In this document: positions 23,439 through 33,067 of the stretch, piece after piece | Layout of the letters: every line of letters begins with the position of its first letter | Position numbering within the stretch: position 1 is the stretch's first letter | Assembly (NCBI GenBank): GCA_046760185.1 | Contig: JBHIDP010000003.1 | Coordinates: 1 to 33,067 of the forward strand | Direction of reading: 5' to 3' | Source: Anaerolineae bacterium | GTDB taxonomy: Bacteria; Chloroflexota; Anaerolineae; JBHIDP01 | Length of the DNA: 33,067 nucleotides | Notes under the pieces: model-generated | Databases searched by the model: none | What the model was told of the DNA's origin: nothing | The model's input: the letters and a program-made list of their open reading frames with translations, nothing else | Program-made: the position numbers and the translations under genes

Positions 23439-23531
23439 TGGCCCCTCTACAATTTGGCTGGATGCAAGGTTGTGGCAGATCGGAATGGCCGGTTCACCAC
23501 AACCTTGTCTTGTTTTCAAATGGATTTCAAA

Positions 23532-24995
23532 ATGGTTCAACCTAAACTGGAACTGTTGGACAGAGCCCTTGTTGAACGTATCGTGGGAGAAGCCTACCAG
23601 GTCTTGCAGGAACCCGGGGTGCGGATTCACTGGCCGGAAGCACTTGAGCTGCTGGCCGAGGCGGGAGCAGTCGTTGATTTCCAGAGACAGGTGGTCCATA
23701 TCCCTGAGAAGATGGTTCTGGAAGCCCTGGAAACTGCCCCTTCCGGGTTCGCCCTGTACGACGTTGATGGCCAGGTAGCGGTGCGCTACGAAGGTGATCA
23801 CATCCAGTTCAATCCAGGGTCGGCCGCTATCTACCTGCTAGACGATCCTGAGAAAGGGGTTGTCCGTAAACCGGTCACAGCCGACTTTGTAAAGTTCATC
23901 AAGCTGACCGAAGGGGTGGAGCAGATGGACGCCCAAAGCACGGCCATGGTCTGCAGCGACGTTCCACAGGCGGTAGCCGATTGTTATCGGCTCTATCTGG
24001 TGCTCAGGTACTCCCGTAAGCCGGTGGTTACCGGGGCCTTCACCGTGGAGGGGGTCTCCACCATGAGGGAGATGCTGGTGGCCATGGTCGGCAACGAAAA
24101 GGCCCTGGCCGAACGTCCCCTGGCCGTCTTCGATGTCTGCCCTTCTCCTCCTCTCCTGTGGAGCGAGATAACCTGCGCCAATCTGATGGACTGCGCTCGT
24201 TATTCTATCCCGGCCGAGCTGGTCTCCATGCCCTTGACGGGAGCGACGGGGCCCGTGACCCTCAGCGGTTGTCTAGTGCAGCATTGTGCCGAGAGCCTCA
24301 GCGGCTTGGTCATCCACCAGTTGGTGAACCCCGGGGCACCTATTGTCTACGGTGGCTCCCCCTCTGCCTTCAACATGCGTCATGGGACGACCCCTATGGG
24401 AGCCATCGAAACCATCATGATCGACTGTGCCTACGCTCAGATCGGCAAGTACCTGGGATTGCCTACCCATGCTTATCTAGGCCTGAGTGATGCCAAAGTA
24501 GTGGATACCCAGGTTGGCTTTGAATCAGCCATGGGGACCATCATGGGGGCCCTGGCCGGGGTCAACATGATAGCCGGGGCGGGGATGCTCGACTTCGAGA
24601 GCTGTCAGAGCTACGAGAAGCTAGTCATTGACAACGATATCTGTGGCATGGCCCGGCGGCTTGTGCGCGGTGTGGAGCCGATTGGGAAGGAGCTGGCGGT
24701 CAGCCTGATCCGTGAGGTCGGCCACGAGGGGAACTTCCTGGCAGCCAGGCACACCCGCCAGTGGTACCGGGCGGAGCACTTCTTCCCTTCCTCGGTGGTG
24801 GACAGGGCTACGCGACACACCTGGCTGGAGAGCGGAGGGAGCAACACCCTGCAACGAGCGCGGGAACGGGTCGAGGAGGTTCTCACCGCCTACCAACCCC
24901 GCGACCTGCCGCCGGAGGTGGAGAAAGAGCTGACGGCCATTATGGCCCGTGCAGCCAGGAAACATGGCATGAAGAAATTGCCGAGCGTTGCCTAA
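23532..24995 (+). CDS. mttB: Trimethylamine methyltransferase (MttB) superfamily, non-pyrrolysine member
   Basis: SPPL, GATGPVTL.G, QLVNPGAPIVYG, G..E, LGLP.....GLSDAK..D.Q.G.E and GH.GNFL...HT. No in-frame TAG. Start at ATG 23532 preferred; the ORF can extend to 23454. Confidence 0.88.
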   Translation: MVQPKLELLDRALVERIVGEAYQVLQEPGVRIHWPEALELLAEAGAVVDFQRQVVHIPEKMVLEALETAPSGFALYDVDGQVAVRYEGDHIQFNPGSAAIYLLDDPEKGVVRKPVTADFVKFIKLTEGVEQMDAQSTAMVCSDVPQAVADCYRLYLVLRYSRKPVVTGAFTVEGVSTMREMLVAMVGNEKALAERPLAVFDVCPSPPLLWSEITCANLMDCARYSIPAELVSMPLTGATGPVTLSGCLVQHCAESLSGLVIHQLVNPGAPIVYGGSPSAFNMRHGTTPMGAIETIMIDCAYAQIGKYLGLPTHAYLGLSDAKVVDTQVGFESAMGTIMGALAGVNMIAGAGMLDFESCQSYEKLVIDNDICGMARRLVRGVEPIGKELAVSLIREVGHEGNFLAARHTRQWYRAEHFFPSSVVDRATRHTWLESGGSNTLQRARERVEEVLTAYQPRDLPPEVEKELTAIMARAARKHGMKKLPSVA

Positions 24996-27899: not shown

Positions 27900-28011
27900 A
27901 AACCCCCGTCGTTAAGACGGGGGAGGTTCCTCGCTGCCCCAGGGAAGTTTCAAACGATAGGCTCTCCTTTGGTCAGCGAGCAGGTTCCCACCGGCTAAAA
28001 GCCGGGGGTTT
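27900..28011. repeat. Inverted pair of hairpins resembling IS200/IS605 ends or REPs
   Basis: AAACCCCCGTCGTTAAGACGGGGGAGGTTCCTCGCTG (27900-27936) and the reverse complement of 27974-28011, AAACCCCCGGCTTTTAGCCGGTGGGAACCTGCTCGCTG. Confidence 0.6.
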
Positions 28012-28035
28012 GTCTCCAGCTTCCAGATGAGCTAG

Positions 28036-28122
28036 TCACTCGCTCTTCCCCTCCACCACCGCCATCTCCTCCTCTGTCAGCCCGTACAGCACGTACACGA
28101 TGAGGTCAAATGGCTGATCGGA
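28036..28122 (-). pseudogene. Remnant 3' tail of a Type IIG (Eco57I-like/N6-MTase) restriction-modification gene, copy A
   Basis: Reads SDQPFDLIVYVLYGLTEEEMAVVEGKSE* with no start codon, and is a direct repeat of 29248-29331. Confidence 0.7.
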
Positions 28123-28154
28123 GCAATGTAGGTCAGAGGAGCTTCCCCGGCACC

Positions 28155-29198
28155 TCATGCCCCATCTATTCGTTCCCTAACATACCGGGCGAAGCCGATG
28201 GGCAGGTACTCGATCTCTCCAAACAGACGCCGATATCTCTCCTCAGCCTCGGTGCCGGCCCCCTCCCTGTCCACGACAGTGACTGTCGGTCTCCGACCGC
28301 GCTGGCTCCAGGAATTGTACGTAGCCCGCTTGATCATGCACTTGATCTCCACATCGGCGTCAGCCAGCGAGTAACCGATGAAGACCACCCGATCCGCACG
28401 TGTTATCTTTTCCTCAGCGTTGCGCCAGACCTGTAGAAGCAATCCATTTGCGTAGTCCTTGAGCAACGTGGGAGTGATGATCAGAGCCTGGTAGCACAAA
28501 TGGCACCGAAGGCAGACTGCAGGCTCTTCTTCAAAGATCCGCAAAGTTCCCTTTTCGGCCAGGGTCACGTCAAGCGCCTGACAGTTCGGGCAATAGAGCC
28601 AGTTTAAAGAACCGTGCAGCTTGTATAAATCACGCGACGGCTCCGCCCGGTAAGCACGAGCAGGTTCGTAATAATCATCGGGGTACCAGTGGTAAAAGAG
28701 ACGAACGTCCACACCATAGTTCACCCGCTGCGGTCCGAACTCTTGCGCCAAAGCGTTGTCCACGATGATGTCGTAGTTGAGGGAGATGATGGTATCCTCC
28801 TCGGTCAGGGAGCGCACCAGGTCGAGGGTGGCGTGTCTATCCCTCTCCAGTCTCTGCAACGTGTCTTTGAGCAGGCGCGCGATCAGGTAGATCAGATCTT
28901 CACGTAGCTCTTGCACCTTCTGGAGCGGATAGTTGGCTGACAGAGGGCGATTCTGTGTTACGCACAGGTCGAGTTGACTCAAGACATCCTCCAGTCGCGG
29001 AAGGATGGCCTGACTACTTCGAGCGTCGGATGGGAGTGGCGAGCCCAGGTAAAAGTCCGATACGAACTTGCACACGTTTCGAATTCTGGGATCGTGGGCA
29101 AAGCGCTCGAATGCCAGGGGCAAGAAGTCGTTCATAAGTGGCGCTTGGGGAGCCACTGCCTTGGTCGCACCTGCTCCCAGAATGTACACGGTAGACAT
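28155..29198 (-). CDS. SIR2-family (SIR2_2-like) protein, putative NADase defence effector
   Basis: VYILGAGA, ISLNYD, YKLHGSLNW, a CPNC...CLRC zinc-binding pair, IITPT..K and VFIGYSL..AD. RBS AAGGAGG. Confidence 0.88.
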   Translation of the reverse strand: MSTVYILGAGATKAVAPQAPLMNDFLPLAFERFAHDPRIRNVCKFVSDFYLGSPLPSDARSSQAILPRLEDVLSQLDLCVTQNRPLSANYPLQKVQELREDLIYLIARLLKDTLQRLERDRHATLDLVRSLTEEDTIISLNYDIIVDNALAQEFGPQRVNYGVDVRLFYHWYPDDYYEPARAYRAEPSRDLYKLHGSLNWLYCPNCQALDVTLAEKGTLRIFEEEPAVCLRCHLCYQALIITPTLLKDYANGLLLQVWRNAEEKITRADRVVFIGYSLADADVEIKCMIKRATYNSWSQRGRRPTVTVVDREGAGTEAEERYRRLFGEIEYLPIGFARYVRERIDGA

Positions 29199-29247
29199 GC
29201 GCGCACCTCCTTGCTTCCTTAAGGCCCGACAGCGTTTTCCTGCCCAG

Positions 29248-29498
29248 CTAGCTTCTCCCCCCCACCACCGCTATCTCCTCCTCCGTCAGCCCATAGAGCC
29301 TGTACACGATCCGGTCAATGAGCCGATCCGTGGCCTCGATGCGGGCCAGCAGAGGTTTGAGCTTGGCCATTGAGTCCTCGAACTCGCCCTTAATCTTCTC
29401 CTGCGCCTCGCGCCCCTCCACGTCCCGCCCCATCCTCTTTCGGTTCTGGCTCAGCGCCCGCTGCATCTCCGACAGGGGTACTCCCAGTAGACCCGCAC
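29248..29498 (-). pseudogene. Remnant 3' part of a Type IIG restriction-modification gene, copy B
   Basis: EMQRALSQNRKRM...EFEDSMAKLKPLLARIEATDRLIDRIVYRLYGLTEEEIAVVGGRS*. A possible upstream continuation (VRVYWEYP) lies in another frame, suggesting a frameshift. Confidence 0.75.
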
Positions 29499-29582
29499 GT
29501 GGCTAATGTGGCGGACAAAGGGGCAACCGCACCAGGACGTAGGTTCAAGGAGATGGACAAATGTGGAATCCAGCACGGTGTG

Positions 29583-30716
29583 TCATAGGGAAGTGGGGAC
29601 CTGGTCTGACTCCTCCAACGAGACAGGTGCATCCCAAATATTATCTCGCTCTCTGATCTTGCGGGTGGGGCCACCCACACGCCAGATGAGGACATACTCA
29701 TGAGCCAGAGGTATGAAGTGTTCGATACTGTATCTGCGCCCGAACGATTTGACGTTATGCTGAGCTTTGATCAGGATCGGGTAGTCAGGGTCACCAAGTC
29801 TTGAGATTAAGTCTCTGAAGATGAAGTAGTACTTTCCCCTCTTTCGCACATCCCCAAGCAGGACTGCAAGATGCCCGCCGTTGGGTTCTAATGCCCTAAG
29901 CAGTCGTTTGCAAGCGCGTGCGAGATTTTCGATAAAGTCCTCGTACTTATGAATGTTACTCAGATCTCTCGGATCTTCCGAGTACTTTACAATGTCCCAA
30001 TATGGCGGATGGAAAAAAATAAAGTCGAACCCTGGTGGTATTTGTGAAGTTAGCACATCAAATCCATCTCGCAAGTCGCGCTGTAGACACTCTACTCCCA
30101 ATTCACGGCATACGTCACCTGTGGTTCCACTGCCAGCGGCTGGATCGAGAACGCGCTTGGCACCAAAGTGTGTGACCAACTCCTTGATCAGGTACCCGGA
30201 GCAGTTACCCGGATACTTGTGGTCACCATATGGTCCTCTATCAGGGTAAGCGACAATGGAGGTTAACATAGTGGCTGGTCTGATGCGCTCCCACTCAGAC
30301 AATCCGTTTTGGACCTGCTGTTCTTCCTGGGCATCGAGCACCCGCCAGCCGCTTCGCCCCTTGCTCCAGATGTGGAGGGGCTGCACTCTCTCGACATCTG
30401 TGAAGAAGATAAGAGTTCCGTATCTTGCATCGCGATACTGTTTCCAGAAGTCGTCAGTAAAGCACAGTTGAGAGTTGTAACGAGAACGAAGCGTATTAAT
30501 AGTTTCAGGAGTGAGATCTGGGAAGAATTGTGCCTCGTCAACAGTTGCACGTCCCAGAACAGGACCGGAGGTCAGTTTCAGCAGGACGGTATCGCCCTTT
30601 TCAATCTGGCCAAAAGGTGCAAGACGTTTTTTGCTGAGCCGAACATCTGCGGTCTTCTCACCGCTCAGTAGCAGGTCGAGGTAAGGCTGACGAAAAATAG
30701 CTAGATGAACCGTCAT
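29583..30716 (-). CDS. ASCH (PUA-like) domain fused to an amino-(N6A/N4C)-DNA methyltransferase
   Basis: N-terminal HLAI..PY..LLLSGEKTADVR...GD.V (ASCH). C-terminal YPGNCSG, VLDPAAGSGTT (motif I) and FFHPPYW (motif IV). ATGA-coupled to the upstream gene. Confidence 0.8.
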   Translation of the reverse strand: MTVHLAIFRQPYLDLLLSGEKTADVRLSKKRLAPFGQIEKGDTVLLKLTSGPVLGRATVDEAQFFPDLTPETINTLRSRYNSQLCFTDDFWKQYRDARYGTLIFFTDVERVQPLHIWSKGRSGWRVLDAQEEQQVQNGLSEWERIRPATMLTSIVAYPDRGPYGDHKYPGNCSGYLIKELVTHFGAKRVLDPAAGSGTTGDVCRELGVECLQRDLRDGFDVLTSQIPPGFDFIFFHPPYWDIVKYSEDPRDLSNIHKYEDFIENLARACKRLLRALEPNGGHLAVLLGDVRKRGKYYFIFRDLISRLGDPDYPILIKAQHNVKSFGRRYSIEHFIPLAHEYVLIWRVGGPTRKIRERDNIWDAPVSLEESDQVPTSL

Positions 30717-31930
30717 TGCTCTTTCACTTCACTCGGATAATGCCGCTGCAATTCTAAAGCGGGCGTCCCTCCCGTGTATGTGTATCGGATGAGTTCTAAC
30801 TGCTTCCACTGGGCGGGCGCATAGGGTCGCCGAGGGGTAACAAAATCCTTGGGCAGAGTGCTCTGAACATATTGGACCACGTCATCGGCGTAATCATGGG
30901 CCACGAAATAGGCATCTACCAAGCTGTAGTCTCCACCCGCCCGAGTATGAGCTACCCAGTCTACATACTTGATGAGTTGGTTTATGCCCTCCTCAGTTGC
31001 TACTTTGCCCTTCTTGATCTCGACAATCTTGTAGCGGACCACCGTGGGCGAAGCCTCTTGTGAGATCCTCTTCTCGACATACCCGAAAATGTCAATTCTG
31101 TCCATAAACTGGACTGGCTTTTGGGGAGAGGCCGGGTACTGATTTGTCACATAGTCCCAATTGCCGAATATCCTAACTGCCTGTTCTTGCCTCTGTGTAA
31201 GGGCGTTGGTCAGCCATGCATGTACCAAGGCTTCGTGACCAACAGAGCCATCCCGTTTAGCATGTTTCCTAATAAGCCCATCGAGGTCAATCTGATAACG
31301 CGTGAGATCATGCTCGCGAACCCTGGTGTGAATCTGTTCGGCTCGTGAATCGAAGACCTGGTCAGGAAACGGATACCCGTTGAGAATATCTTCGTTGCGC
31401 CGGAGTAGCAAATCAAGTATGACTTGAGTCTCTTCGTCTTCCATCTGAATAAAGCTGACTCTCTCGAAGATGCGGAGAGAGCGAACGACACCCTTGACAT
31501 CGCTTGCCAACACCTCGTCCATGTCCAGACCAGTCTTGAAGAAGTAGGGGTGCGGCTCAAAGAAGATTACCCAGCGCAGATTCTCCTCTCCATTCTCTCG
31601 CCACAGGTAGTCATCGGGGTTCTGTGGTGTGGTAGCGTGGGGAAACGAGGCACCTGGATAGTTGGACAAGGCAGCTAGCTGCTGTTCTTCTACATCGAAG
31701 CCAACAACCCGACCAACACCATAAATATTACGACCGAGGAAGAAGAACACCAACGCGCCAGGACGGACCGTAACATAGTCCGCCAAGATTCTTTCTCGAG
31801 TATGGTGCCAAGAATCTTCCGAAGGACGCTCGATTAGAGTCCCATAGGCACCGTACCTGCAGTACAACTCTAGTTTTTCCCGACCCGCGCGCTGTTCTAT
31901 AGTGCCGAGGTTCATGATGTAACCAGACAT
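30713..31930 (-). CDS. Putative restriction endonuclease: EVE/PUA-like N-terminal domain plus C-terminal PD-(D/E)XK nuclease
   Basis: N-terminal VRPGALVFFF..RNIYGVGRV. C-terminal HEA...RIDIFGY...IVEIKK...QLIKYVDW (NucS/Mrr-like D-ExK plus QxxxY). ATG 31930 follows GAGGA; the ORF can extend to 31954. Confidence 0.65.
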   Translation of the reverse strand: MSGYIMNLGTIEQRAGREKLELYCRYGAYGTLIERPSEDSWHHTRERILADYVTVRPGALVFFFLGRNIYGVGRVVGFDVEEQQLAALSNYPGASFPHATTPQNPDDYLWRENGEENLRWVIFFEPHPYFFKTGLDMDEVLASDVKGVVRSLRIFERVSFIQMEDEETQVILDLLLRRNEDILNGYPFPDQVFDSRAEQIHTRVREHDLTRYQIDLDGLIRKHAKRDGSVGHEALVHAWLTNALTQRQEQAVRIFGNWDYVTNQYPASPQKPVQFMDRIDIFGYVEKRISQEASPTVVRYKIVEIKKGKVATEEGINQLIKYVDWVAHTRAGGDYSLVDAYFVAHDYADDVVQYVQSTLPKDFVTPRRPYAPAQWKQLELIRYTYTGGTPALELQRHYPSEVKEQ

Positions 31931-31958
31931 AGTGCTGCTTCCTCTTTCTGACACGAAG

Positions 31959-32831
31959 TTAGTAGTTCAAAATGACAAGTTCCGGGATGCTACCGCGTCC
32001 ATCCCCCTTACAGCTTATGGCACGTGTTGCAGAAACGACCTCTTGCCTATAATCAACATAGAGTTGTCGGATGAAGGAGGTGCAGGAATTACTAAGCATG
32101 ACAATGCAGCCTTTCCGATCGAGTTGCCGAAATACTTCCGCTAGACGGCGCTGATCATCTTTGTCAAAATCGTCCCTCGTATAACTGGTAAATGAAGCCG
32201 TCTCACTAAGCGGGTGATACGGCGGATCAAGGTAAAGAAAATCGCCCGGGCCAGCCCACTCAACACACCGTTCGAAGTCCTCTGAACGAAGTTCAACCCC
32301 CTGAAGGGCCTGACTGACTGCCCGCAGATTGTCCTCGTCACAGATCGTGGGGTTCTTGTAACTGCCGAAGGGCACATTGAATTGTCCTCGGCTGTTCACT
32401 CGGTACAGGCCATTGTAGCAGGTCCGGTTCAGGAAAATCGTGCGGGCAGCCCGCTCGACCGGACTGCGTTCGTTGAAATCTGTTTTCCTGTCCCATCCTC
32501 TGATTTCGTAGAAATAGCTCTTCTCCGTCTTGTGAACTTCATGGTGGCGGAGCTCTTCGATCAACTCATCAACCCGGTCCCGGATGATTTCGTAACATGT
32601 CATTAATTCTTGGGTCAAGTCATTGAGAATGACTCCATCAGCAATGAGACCCTCATTGCGAAGGTAGAAGAACACAGCCCCCCCACCAACGAAGGGTTCA
32701 ATGTACTTGTTGAAATGAGAGGGAAACAATGGCCCAAACTGCTCCAACAGTTGGCCTTTGCCACCCGCCCACTTTACAACAGGGGTGGCCTGGAGTCTGA
32801 GGTCTAGTTGTGCAACTTCAACACTCATCAT
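31959..32831 (-). CDS. dam: Dam/DpnM-family DNA adenine methyltransferase
   Basis: KWAGGKGQL, YIEPFVGGGAVFF, LNRTCYNGLYRVN..G.FNVPFG, YLDPPY and MLSNS. Confidence 0.93.
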   Translation of the reverse strand: MMSVEVAQLDLRLQATPVVKWAGGKGQLLEQFGPLFPSHFNKYIEPFVGGGAVFFYLRNEGLIADGVILNDLTQELMTCYEIIRDRVDELIEELRHHEVHKTEKSYFYEIRGWDRKTDFNERSPVERAARTIFLNRTCYNGLYRVNSRGQFNVPFGSYKNPTICDEDNLRAVSQALQGVELRSEDFERCVEWAGPGDFLYLDPPYHPLSETASFTSYTRDDFDKDDQRRLAEVFRQLDRKGCIVMLSNSCTSFIRQLYVDYRQEVVSATRAISCKGDGRGSIPELVILNY

Positions 32832-32886
32832 TCCAACCTTCCGGCCAAACAGAGTAGATGACCCTCTAGCAAGGCTATACGCTTAT

Positions 32887-32915
32887 ATCATAGCAGACAT
32901 CTTCAGAGAAATCAA
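32887..32915 (-). promoter_or_regulatory. sigma70 promoter with extended -10 for the methyltransferase operon
   Basis: Minus strand TTGATT-17 bp-TATGAT with TGn. Confidence 0.55.
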
Positions 32916-33014
32916 GGCCAACTCGCTGGTTGCTGAGGCTGACGCACCTCCAAGTCGTCGAAGAAGTTGCCTTTGTGGGTGGCTGCCAAGATTGCTGCAC
33001 GATGTCAGCAGTCC

Positions 33015-33067
33015 CTACCACTGCCTTCTCCGTCTGAACCGGCTTCGGATCAGGGTAGCCACCAGGG
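33015..33067 (-). CDS. pstA: 3' end of a probable phosphate ABC permease PstA (cut by the window edge)
   Basis: Reads LVATLIRSRFRRRRQW*, a hydrophobic-then-basic C-terminus typical of PstA. Same strand as pstB and upstream of it. Only 16 aa are visible. Confidence 0.6.
   Translation of the reverse strand, partial: LVATLIRSRFRRRRQW

Follow-up and report, generated by a model that had tools for sequence, protein, structure and literature searches.

The three-gene cassette on the minus strand of the window, by which we mean the whole 33,067-nt stretch of DNA that was analysed, is restriction-modification (R-M)-like. We give about an even chance to its being a Type II R-M system for GATC (DpnII/MboI-like), arranged M1-R-M2, with a restriction endonuclease (REase) from a new reader-fold family. 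The conserved unit is a pair, a GATC-type methyltransferase (MTase) and the gene 2 nuclease, and not the triad. The initial annotation had proposed an R-M variant built of three genes; R-M was indeed the best supported type of system, but the triad occurred in 7/7 close metagenomic relatives and in 0/80 species genomes, so that the unit differs from the one proposed.

The cassette comprised three co-oriented ORFs between 29583 and 32831, encoding a Dam-like MTase, a nuclease and an ASCH-MTase, and the ATG of gene 3 overlapped the stop codon of gene 2 (ATGA, 30713–30716), in agreement with the initial annotation. The gene 2 ORF opened at a GTG at 31954, while all homologues begin at the ATG at 31930 (MSGY…, 405 aa), upstream of which lay the RBS-like AGAGGAAG. 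The extended -10 promoter attributed to the cassette was found as a TG-extended site and was the sole sigma-70-like match in 28000–33067, but its frequency was no higher than in shuffled sequence (2.8 ± 1.5 matches); the site is compatible with a promoter function, without exceeding chance expectation. It overlapped the 3′ end of an upstream ORF running off the contig. The window also contained defence-type neighbours, namely a SIR2-like gene and a Type IIG remnant.

Coordinates of the cassette features in the window
Feature	Position	Strand	Basis
Gene 1, DpnM/Dam-family N6-adenine DNA MTase (M1), 290 aa, DPPY	31959..32831	-	Profile matches
Gene 2, two-domain nuclease, putative REase, 405 aa	30713..31930	-	AF2 fold and conserved motifs
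Gene 2 residues 1-190, EVE/YTH-like (PUA superfamily) domain	31361..31930	-	Fold matches
Gene 2 residues 214-401, PD-(D/E)XK nuclease domain	30728..31291	-	Fold and motif conservation
Gene 2 motif codon D280	31091-31093	-	405-aa numbering
Gene 2 motif codon E304	31019-31021	-	405-aa numbering
Gene 2 motif codon K306	31013-31015	-	405-aa numbering
Gene 3, ASCH-like domain and permuted N6_N4-type amino-MTase (M2), 377 aa	29583..30716	-	Profile and fold matches
Gene 3 residues 1-~115, ASCH-like domain	30372..30716	-	Sub-cut-off profile, relatives' matches
Gene 3 residues ~150-347, MTase core, DPAAGSGTT then FFHPPYW	29676..30269	-	PF01555, alignment
Promoter-like site TTGATT-17 nt-TGnTATGAT	32887..32915	-	Sigma-70-like pattern, 56 nt upstream of gene 1 start

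Gene 2 had no Pfam, NCBIfam or PADLOC match at E ≤ 0.1 and no sequence match in the PDB. The AF2 model (pLDDT 89.5, pTM 0.88), together with Foldseek and VIA-align, revealed an N-terminal PUA-superfamily reader fold, a helical linker and a C-terminal nuclease. The EVE/PUA-like N-terminus suspected earlier was therefore borne out by fold and not by sequence; the Pfam EVE profile was not matched at E ≤ 0.1, and the likeness is at fold level only. The best Foldseek matches of the model included PH1033 (8.8e-5), VcaM4I (2.7e-4) and 2eve (4.6e-4), and the N-domain reached a probability of 1.00 against PH1033, MJECL36, VcaM4I, 2eve, THYN1 and YTH domains. VIA-align Z scores for residues 1 to ~190 ranged from 9.9 to 11.5 (11.5 for 1wmm, 11.3 for 6yex, ~10 for YTH domains), EVE and YTH folds scoring about equally. 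In this domain 37/190 columns were ≥ 90% conserved, with G27, Y29, T31, W41, D51, R67, G71, G73, N90, R119, F124 and D136-M137-D138 among the conserved residues. By its core fold and D…ExK motif, the C-terminal domain is a PD-(D/E)XK nuclease. Its best fold match was NucS (Z 10.5, residues 232–393), followed by FokI (8.7), BspD6I (8.6) and Can2/Card1 (~8). The D…ExK…QxxxY set noted in the initial annotation is real: D280 (RID), E304 and K306 (EIK), Q318 and Y322 were invariant in 23/23 aligned homologues, and the motif residues were ≥ 90% conserved in 81 sequences, Dam-linked and C5-linked alike.

The gene 2 family comprised 307 representative clusters (50% identity, E ≤ 1e-3). It is unannotated: 44 close homologues were without precomputed Pfam domains, RefSeq (PGAP) labels the homologues 'hypothetical protein', and Pfam, NCBIfam and PADLOC all miss this nuclease, a library gap that the cassette exposes. 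A DNA MTase was present in the fetched flanks at 77/80 species-level loci, within 2 kb at 75 of these. The partner was Dam in 27 loci, a C5 MTase with a MutH-like REase in 42, a C5 MTase only in 7 and an N6_N4 MTase in 1. At the 27 Dam loci the MTase was directly upstream of the nuclease in a two-gene cassette, and the two genes were on the same strand and 4–173 nt apart in 25; the exceptions were divergent (L009) or decayed (L031), and both had a permuted N6_N4 MTase beside the Dam and nuclease genes. The Dam loci were flanked by unrelated housekeeping genes; a scan of up to two ORFs on either side revealed no further nuclease. In 33 of the 42 loci with a C5 MTase and a MutH-like partner, the REase gene was within 120 nt. 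RefSeq names these partners 'Sau3AI family type II restriction endonuclease', and their catalytic residues were intact (D59, E66 and K68 invariant in 26/26). As an extra gene in Sau3AI-type systems, the nuclease was spread over seven bacterial phyla, Patescibacteria, Melainabacteria and a nanohaloarchaeon. This context of the family was not visible from the window sequence alone.

At several other loci (e.g., L013, L015, L052, L054, and L055) the gene 2 homologue accompanied a C5 or N6_N4 MTase, and no second nuclease was found. One intact homologue (L046) stood without an MTase in the 1.7 kb upstream and the 4 kb downstream of it, and at another locus (L087) an IS element (663-aa transposase) interrupted the nuclease gene but left both MTase genes intact. 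Vsr occurred in the fetched flanks of 13/49 C5-linked loci, where it lay 130 nt to 4.6 kb away from the homologue, and a Dam-family MTase was found in 0/5 host genomes with a C5-context homologue. On the family tree, the partner type switched at least six times while the protein was conserved throughout, and phyla were mixed within clades. Some homologues were plasmid-borne, and a full-length homologue was found in 0/40 same-class genomes. No position was strictly partner-group-specific at the 80% level. Position 30 was G/A in 23/27 Dam-linked and S in 35/41 C5+MutH sequences, position 118 was Q in the former and N in the latter, and position 120 was W and F/C, respectively. These substitutions adjoin invariant N-domain residues, but they are confounded by phylogeny and have exceptions, such as G at position 30 in L015 (C5 only). 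They speak weakly for the proposal of the initial annotation that the nuclease and the second MTase may read modification state.

Gene 1 is a Dam/DpnM-type N6A methyltransferase, as first annotated, with matches to PF02086 (E 3.3e-68, Pfam profile search), TIGR00571 'dam' (301 bits, cut-off 114.85, NCBIfam) and PADLOC MTase_II (1e-99). Its closest solved relative was DpnM of the DpnII system (PDB 2dpm), matched over the full length with E 1.1e-74. The match to E. coli Dam was weaker (1.6e-40), and the score against the E. coli Dam equivalog model (178.7) was below the cut-off of 441. Membership of the DpnM/Dam family suggests GATC as the specificity of gene 1. No further Dam homologue was found in the host genome (88% complete).

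For gene 3, the proposed joining of an ASCH-like domain to a second amino-MTase is probable, with PF01555 above its cut-off (34.2 bits, cut-off 26.7) and ASCH (PF04266) below its gathering cut-off (17.7 bits, cut-off 21.2). ASCH was matched (E ≤ 0.1) by 13/27 members of the gene 3 alignment, with a best E of 2e-4, and all 13 were among the 14 full-length fusions. The nearest Atlas clusters to the N-terminus were also ASCH (score 0.86, a lead only), and Foldseek placed ZmASCH at rank 50 (3.5e-4) on the low-confidence N-terminus. The MTase is permuted relative to PF01555: residues 151–210 aligned to profile positions 145–206 and residues 216–292 to the DPPY part, so that motif I (GSGTT) precedes motif IV, which is HPPYW and not (D/N/S)PP(Y/F). 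H236-P-P-Y-W240 was invariant in 27/27. Further matches were TTHA0409 (PDB 2zie, 2.8e-10) and PADLOC MTase_II (1.3e-16). The AF2 model had a pLDDT of 67.9 overall and of 85–97 in the MTase core, for which Foldseek matched M.TaqI, TTHA0409, and Trm11. The genomic context suggests that gene 3 acts on DNA. The ASCH-MTase is a lineage-specific addition, present in the seven close metagenome loci (74–88% identity).

In a GATC-type R-M system, gene 1 would mark host GATC as Gm6ATC, and gene 2 would be the REase, cutting DNA whose target sites are without the mark of its partner. The EVE/YTH-like domain would interrogate a flipped base of the site and gate the nuclease, sparing methylated self DNA, and gene 3 would be an accessory, lineage-specific second MTase. 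DNA MTase and nuclease stand side by side in a self-contained unit, as required of Type II R-M, and the pair appears mobile because the Dam gene is directly upstream, the flanks are unrelated and no other nuclease was found in the ORFs scanned there. The R-M reading is supported by the MTase linkage at 77/80 loci, by the closer relationship of gene 1 to DpnM, an R-M MTase, than to the orphan E. coli Dam, and by the persistence of the nuclease through the changes of partner. D-ExK-QxxxY was kept in both contexts and the nuclease was sometimes the sole one beside an MTase, which argues in the same direction, as do the patchy distribution, the plasmids and the mixed phyla. A broken nuclease with intact MTases (L087) is the asymmetry expected for R-M, and the M2 gene next to R has a counterpart in DpnII, for which two MTases are described; permuted N6_N4 MTases also recur at L009 and L031. 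GATC is the probable target because the partners are Dam/DpnM-type MTases, or C5 MTases beside Sau3AI/MutH-family REases. Mild depletion of GATC in the host genome (O/E 0.80, 14,813 sites) is uninformative rather than supportive.

Several observations argue against the R-M reading. All PUA-superfamily nuclease fusions characterised in the literature cited here are modification-dependent; where a Sau3AI-like REase is already present (42/80 loci), another REase for the same sites would be superfluous; a single enzyme family would have to be blocked by m6A in one set of hosts and by 5mC in another; QxxxY and the NucS/Can2/FokI-type folds are atypical of site-specific Type IIP enzymes; and the L046 homologue is intact without a nearby MTase.

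The nuclease could instead, with low probability, be an abortive-infection effector that takes its signal from the methylome of its own host. The EVE-like domain would then bind methylated mono- or oligonucleotides, m6-dAMP in Dam hosts or 5m-dCMP in C5 hosts, and phage degradation of the methylated chromosome would free these ligands and unleash the PD-(D/E)XK nuclease, the mark supplied by the adjacent MTase becoming the alarm signal. Binding of Dam-derived m6-dAMP by a PUA-like sensor was reported for PUA-Cal-HAD (PMC12871103), and autoinhibition of the VcaM4I nuclease by its EVE domain and linker was also described (PMC7897488). An effector would account for a reader fold obligately linked to an MTase of either chemistry and for its addition to already complete Sau3AI-type systems, and it fits the substitutions at positions 30, 118 and 120; these are, however, not strictly group-specific and are confounded by phylogeny, with exceptions (L015). 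It also leaves the second MTase (gene 3; L009, L031) without a role, and gene 1 is a relative of the R-M-type DpnM. Common to effector and REase, and possible at well below an even chance, is that the EVE/YTH-like domain reads the partner MTase's own GATC mark (m6A or 5mC by lineage), self marks switching the nuclease off or freed methylated nucleotides switching it on.

Still less probable is a modification-dependent (Type IV/IIM) endonuclease directed against a foreign mark. This could be the mark of the opposing GATC epigenotype, 5mC where the host has Dam and m6A where it has a C5 MTase, or a hypermodified phage base, and the neighbouring MTase would be irrelevant or merely compatible. Fold and architecture do resemble VcaM4I (EVE-HNH) and MspJI-type enzymes, putative modification-dependent DUF3427-DUF3883 fusions were described beside GATC C5 MTases and Sau3AI/MutH-like REases (Lutz, 2019), and an m6A-dependent activity would be tolerable in the five C5-context hosts, none of which had a Dam-family MTase. 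Such an enzyme would nevertheless leave unexplained the strict Dam-nuclease cassettes in housekeeping surroundings (27 loci) and the linkage to MTases, near which published PUA nucleases are rarely found (Lutz, 2019), and would need opposite specificities in two groups sharing all conserved N-domain residues. A methyl-directed repair or strand-discrimination enzyme, a MutH or NucS analogue whose reader fold would recognise hemimethylated GATC and which would nick the unmethylated strand, is very improbable. The mismatch endonuclease NucS was the best C-terminal fold match, gene 2 is linked to GATC MTases, and Vsr accompanied some C5-linked loci; against this, the distribution is patchy and mobile, including plasmids, the 40 same-class genomes are without a full-length homologue, homologues co-occur with true REases, and the neighbours in the window (SIR2-like gene, Type IIG remnant) are of defence type.

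Fusion of a reader fold (PUA, EVE, SRA, YTH) to a nuclease currently serves as a signature in searches for modification-dependent restriction enzymes, and one argument for this signature is that such fusions avoid MTase genes. The gene 2 family breaks this rule in 77/80 loci, so that automated annotation treating every PUA-nuclease fusion as Type IV would misassign it. Its reader fold may have come to detect either the self mark or the absence of modification. Should unmethylated GATC prove to be its substrate, the family would join DpnII/MboI and Sau3AI/MutH as the third GATC endonuclease family of distinct structure, and its methylation sensitivity might be tunable and practically useful. 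Reading of the own mark, if true, would make it the first PUA-superfamily reader-nuclease working with a cognate MTase and not against foreign modification, and would explain why bacterial and archaeal R-M systems of the Sau3AI type, complete in themselves, acquired it. The extra gene in these systems raises a testable question about layered defence on one methylome.

In line with the initial annotation, which did not recognise the architecture as a named system, no PADLOC-DB 2.0 system was matched by all components, genes 1 and 3 matching only the generic MTase_II and gene 2 nothing. The gene order of MboI is M-R-M. The cassette resembles DpnII/MboI in its DpnM-like M1 and in encoding two MTases together with a nuclease in a single operon; DpnII is described as consisting of dpnM, dpnA and dpnB, with two MTases (Eutsey, 2015). 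Gene 2 is not a DpnII/MboI-family REase: it matched no Pfam family, that of the DpnII/MboI REases among them, nor any NCBIfam or PADLOC model, and it carries an EVE/YTH-like domain. Likewise, gene 3 is not of the DpnA type (beta-class, IV before I), since M2 is permuted, has HPPY instead of D/N/SPPY and carries an ASCH-like domain. Sau3AI/DpnIII/LlaKR2I-type systems (C5 MTase giving GAT5mC, MutH-fold REase) harbour 42/80 of the homologues, although the characterised DpnIII system is described as having two genes only (Eutsey, 2015). Gene 2 itself belongs to the unannotated reader-fold family and not to the Sau3AI family, and the window cassette is not a Sau3AI-type R-M system, as a query-based search of the window and its genome detected no C5 MTase, MutH-like gene or Vsr.

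Gene 2 shares with VcaM4I (EVE-HNH) and MspJI (SRA-like and PD-(D/E)XK) the succession of reader fold, helical linker and nuclease, the layout described for VcaM4I being an N-terminal EVE, a linker and a C-terminal nuclease (PMC7897488), without sequence-level similarity. These enzymes function in the absence of a cognate MTase; of 350 PUA-superfamily nuclease ORFs, fewer than 6% were reported to lie within 3 kb of a relevant MTase (Lutz, 2019). Because reader-nucleases normally work without one, the MTase-linked gene 2 family is unusual, and it did not stand alone as PUA-superfamily Type IV/IIM enzymes do. The fusion of ASCH to N6A MTases has been noted before (Iyer, Zhang and Aravind, 2016; PMC4738411), ASCH being described there as joined to Dam/DpnM-clade and ParB-linked MTases in cyanobacteria. 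Gene 3 resembles these fusions in joining ASCH to an amino-MTase in a prokaryotic R-M context, and differs from those described there in its permuted PF01555-type MTase with HPPY and in its place downstream of a reader-fold nuclease. PUA-Cal-HAD, to which the gene 2 family was compared by description, likewise combines a PUA-like sensor with an effector tied to Dam methylation, and the preprint describes its PUA family as frequently linked to N6A MTases and nuclease effectors (PMC12871103). The gene 2 effector is a PD-(D/E)XK nuclease, in contrast to the phosphoesterases of PUA-Cal-HAD, and its MTase is encoded in the same operon.

The cassette lay in the final 3.3 kb of the window, itself an entire contig (33,067 bases) from a 2.9-Mb, 88%-complete MAG, and consisted of three minus-strand genes encoding a methyltransferase (MTase; gene 1, M1), a putative restriction endonuclease (REase; gene 2, R) and a second MTase (gene 3, M2). 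This was the co-oriented arrangement described in the initial annotation, with the ATG of gene 3 overlapping the stop of gene 2 (ATGA). ATG 31930 was preferred as the start of gene 2 because homologues begin with MSGY or MAGY, leaving a 28-nt spacer after gene 1 that held a AGAGGAAG stretch. A chance grouping of the three genes was rejected in view of the overlap, the short M1-R spacer and the retention of the triad in 7/7 loci. The extended -10 promoter proposed earlier was present as a TTGATT-17-TGnTATGAT site 56 nt upstream of gene 1, but a single such hit in 5 kb was no more than shuffled sequences gave. Gene 1 had been called Dam-like, in agreement with its matches to PF02086 (3.3e-68), TIGR00571 (301 bits; cut-off 114.85) and PADLOC MTase_II (1e-99). 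Its nearest solved structure was DpnM (1.1e-74 over the full length), with E. coli Dam at only 1.6e-40, and GATC is its presumed specificity.

Features of the cassette and of the neighboring part of the window
Feature	Position (nt)	Strand	Description
Gene 1 (M1)	31959-32831	minus	290 aa, Dam-family N6A MTase
Gene 2 (R)	start ATG 31930	minus	405 aa
Gene 3 (M2)	29583-30716	minus	377 aa
Type IIG REase-MTase remnant	29248-29466	minus	72-aa ORF; PADLOC 4e-7, profile positions 1016-1061 of 1066 only
SIR2_2-domain protein	28155-29198	minus	347 aa; PF13289 2.5e-7; PADLOC Aga_SIR2/SIR2 weak, best 1e-9
MTTB-family (trimethylamine methyltransferase-like) gene	23454-24995	plus	adjoins oligopeptide-type ABC transporter

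Gene 2 matched no Pfam, NCBIfam or PADLOC model at E ≤ 0.1. Sequence searches against the PDB gave E ≥ 2 for the single sequence, and the best profile match, an enoyl-CoA hydratase (0.045), was not meaningful. An AF2 model built from 23 homologues (pLDDT 89.5, pTM 0.88) comprised two domains. In this model, residues 1 to ~190 resembled PH1033, MJECL36, VcaM4I, 2eve and THYN1 at a Foldseek probability of 1.00, followed by many YTH domains, and VIA-align Z-scores were 11.5 (1wmm), 11.3 (VcaM4I) and about 10 (YTH), consistent with the EVE/PUA-like N-terminus predicted at the outset. Residues 214-401 resembled PD-(D/E)XK nucleases, with Z-scores of 10.5 for NucS, 8.7 for FokI, 8.6 for BspD6I and about 8 for Can2/Card1. 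PADLOC and Foldseek, both suggested by the initial annotation, returned no model and a reader fold, respectively. The D...ExK...QxxxY set that it had recognized, D280 (RID), E304-x-K306 (EIK) and Q318-xxx-Y322, was invariant in 23/23 homologues. The two domains were equally conserved, 37 of 190 columns in the N-domain and 40 of 182 in the nuclease domain being ≥90% conserved; conserved N-domain residues included G27, Y29, T31, W41, D51, R67, N90, R119 and D136-M-D138.

The MTase core of gene 3 scored 34.2 bits against PF01555 (cut-off 26.7) and matched TTHA0409 at 2.8e-10, with motif I (DPAAGSGTT) preceding motif IV, the latter represented by an invariant HPPYW (27/27). ASCH similarity was below the Pfam cut-off (17.7 against 21.2 bits) but was shared by 13 of the 27 aligned sequences, each of them one of the 14 full-length fusions, which supports the proposed joining of an ASCH-like domain to a second amino-MTase. 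The nearest Atlas neighbors were ASCH clusters (0.86, a lead only), and ZmASCH appeared at Foldseek rank 50, a weak fold match because the model was poor at its N-terminus (pLDDT 36-60, residues 1-60). An association of ASCH domains with N6A MTases, by fusion or within operons, is already noted by Iyer, Zhang and Aravind 2016 (PMC4738411). The ~210-aa core belonged to a large family (822 matches; one cluster of 4,022 members) of putative MTases, many solitary or with HTH domains, in which the invariant HPPYW replaced (D/N/S)PPY and a YP.RG..G...Y.GNCSG motif occurred N-terminally.

The full ASCH-MTase fusion was confined to close relatives, namely 7/7 metagenome loci (74-88% identity) in the order Dam, gene 2, ASCH-MTase, while 16 loci with the MTase domain alone had neither Dam nor gene 2. 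Permuted N6_N4 MTases without ASCH adjoined Dam and gene-2 homologues in two loci (L009 and L031). The best-supported view is that the ASCH-MTase is a second MTase specific to one lineage, presumably acting on DNA.

The gene-2 family was modest in size and widespread. Close homologues numbered 44, with no Pfam domain precomputed for any of them, and there were 307 representative clusters at E ≤ 1e-3 (96 at ≤ 1e-30). There was no match in the phage collection, two matches were to plasmids, and none of 40 same-class genomes carried a full-length homologue. Homologues occurred at five IMG/VR loci, with a C5 MTase in four, a MutH-like gene in four, a Vsr match in four, and all of these in two. Family members were labeled 'hypothetical protein' in RefSeq (PGAP). 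Literature searches, whose coverage excluded most subscription-journal papers, returned no account of the family; REBASE may already hold some members as putative genes, and Table S2 of Lutz 2019, which concerns PUA nucleases with adjacent MTases, might already contain it.

Among 144 relatives in species-representative genomes, 80 loci were kept for a survey of gene context, assigned by tblastn, using window genes and queries taken from the loci themselves, and by scanning adjacent ORFs with Pfam. An MTase was linked to the homologue in 77/80 loci, within 2 kb in 75. The context was a Dam-like MTase in 27 loci, a C5 MTase with a ~460-aa MutH-domain protein in 42, a C5 MTase only in seven and an N6_N4 MTase in one. 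The neighborhood survey recommended with the initial annotation thus showed that Dam plus gene 2 recurs (27/80), but the ASCH part was found in 0/80 species genomes. In all 27 Dam loci the MTase lay immediately upstream of the homologue; the pairs were surrounded by unrelated housekeeping genes, with no other nuclease among up to two ORFs scanned per side. The MutH-domain partner, labeled 'Sau3AI family type II restriction endonuclease' in RefSeq, lay ≤120 nt from the homologue in 33/42 loci, often with overlapping stop and start, and retained D...ExK (D59, E66, K68) in 26/26 sequences. Of the 49 C5-linked loci, 13 had Vsr within the fetched flanks, separated from the homologue by 130 nt to 4.6 kb. 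Operons of C5 MTase, Sau3AI-like REase and gene-2 homologue were conserved (C5-linked loci in L010-L080, and L107-L111) in Bacillota, Bacteroidota, Actinomycetota, Pseudomonadota, Verrucomicrobiota, Patescibacteria and a nanohaloarchaeon. A complex prediction for the Sau3AI-like REase of one such locus (L030) with its gene-2 homologue, from 26-row alignments, scored 0.00, which is no answer and speaks neither for nor against an interaction.

No MTase was found in three loci, one ending at a contig edge (L019) and one on a 3.4-kb contig with transposases (L070); the third, L046, was a real exception. This Saprospiraceae MAG carried an apparently intact homologue (1734-2882) with no MTase in the 1.7 kb upstream, where a Mur ligase lay, or the 4 kb downstream, and may hold a solitary copy or an MTase elsewhere in its genome; its sister L048 had Dam upstream.

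On a quick ML tree (IQ-TREE, 80 rows, with L060 at <330 aa omitted), partner type clustered, yet at least six changes were needed for Dam and phyla were mixed. One C5+MutH locus (L076) nested inside Dam-linked rows, and a C5-only locus (L015) fell within the clade of the window. No residue was strictly group-specific at 80% per group between Dam-linked and C5-linked homologues, which is compatible with a single activity common to both groups, the simplest being recognition of unmodified GATC. Relaxed criteria yielded positions 54, 118, 175, 273 and 299, and inspection added 30 and 120, as leads only, confounded by phylogeny. Dam-linked and C5+MutH-linked homologues had, respectively, G/A (23/27) and S (35/41) at position 30, Q (18/28) and N (28/42) at 118, and W (21/28) and F (18/42) at 120. 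These three positions adjoin invariant residues and follow partner chemistry, though not cleanly, and the pocket may inspect the base methylated by the partner.

Three relatives showed variation at the locus. In L087 (1516-5004), an IS element, its 663-aa transposase encoded on the other strand, split the nuclease gene near residue 63, with Dam and ASCH-MTase intact, and in L091 and L092 the MTase domain of gene 3 was reduced to a remnant. In L091 (5771-6139) the Type IIG C-terminal fragment that lies behind gene 3 in the window came after this remnant as well, and the site is therefore a variable defence locus. The SIR2_2 gene, just downstream of the cassette and with no partner gene identified, may serve independently in defence by depleting NAD. 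The remaining window genes were housekeeping (HisRS, NAD kinase, PstB, phosphodiesterases).

There is an even chance that the cassette is a GATC-type Type II R-M system of layout M1-R-M2 with an REase from a new reader-fold family. The gene 2 product would then recognize and cut unmodified GATC, and its modeled reader-fold pocket may inspect the target base of the partner. This is argued for by the near-obligate MTase linkage and the self-contained Dam+nuclease pairs, by the DpnM type of M1 and partner systems that all point to GATC, by catalytic residues kept in all contexts with the homologue as the sole nuclease found beside the MTase in some loci, by the IS-broken R gene next to intact M genes, and by the mobile, patchy distribution. 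The R-M-type interpretation of the initial annotation is partly supported, the homologues being MTase-linked (77/80) but its triad limited to close relatives. The reading is weakened by the intact Sau3AI-like REase that already does the job in 42/80 loci, by a nuclease fold nearer NucS, Can2 and FokI than classic Type IIP enzymes, and by L046. With an O/E of 0.80 in the host genome, GATC ranked third lowest among the 16 palindromic tetramers, yet many others lay close to it, so the depletion is not informative.

The R-M reading is also weakened by characterized PUA-nuclease fusions, which are modification-dependent and MTase-avoiding, <6% of 350 having a relevant MTase within 3 kb according to Lutz 2019. 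An enzyme of that kind, directed against rival or hypermodified DNA, would suit the gene 2 fold and has a precedent in DUF3427 enzymes beside Sau3AI-like systems (Lutz 2019); it leaves the Dam two-gene cassettes unexplained and appears improbable. Somewhat less doubtful, though still unlikely, is a methylome-triggered nuclease whose reader fold would sense methylated nucleotides from the degraded host chromosome. Its model is PUA-Cal-HAD, in which, according to a preprint (PMC12871103), Dam-derived m6-dAMP from the degraded chromosome binds a PUA-like sensor. Such sensing would account for the MTase linkage and for the add-on place in complete Sau3AI systems, but offers no role for the second MTase; Dam (TIGR00571) was found in 0/5 C5-context host genomes, which does not discriminate between models. 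A repair role, as a MutH or NucS analogue, suits the mobility of the family poorly and is very improbable.

The gene-2 family is best regarded as an undescribed family of reader-fold nucleases, which also occurs inside Sau3AI-type systems beside an intact REase. It shares with VcaM4I the order reader fold, helical linker, nuclease; in that enzyme the EVE domain and linker restrain the nuclease (PMC7897488). The R-M reading of the cassette finds a parallel close in logic in the DpnII system, whose primary MTase is DpnM and whose genes are dpnM, dpnA and dpnB (Eutsey 2015), whereas the R and M2 proteins differ.
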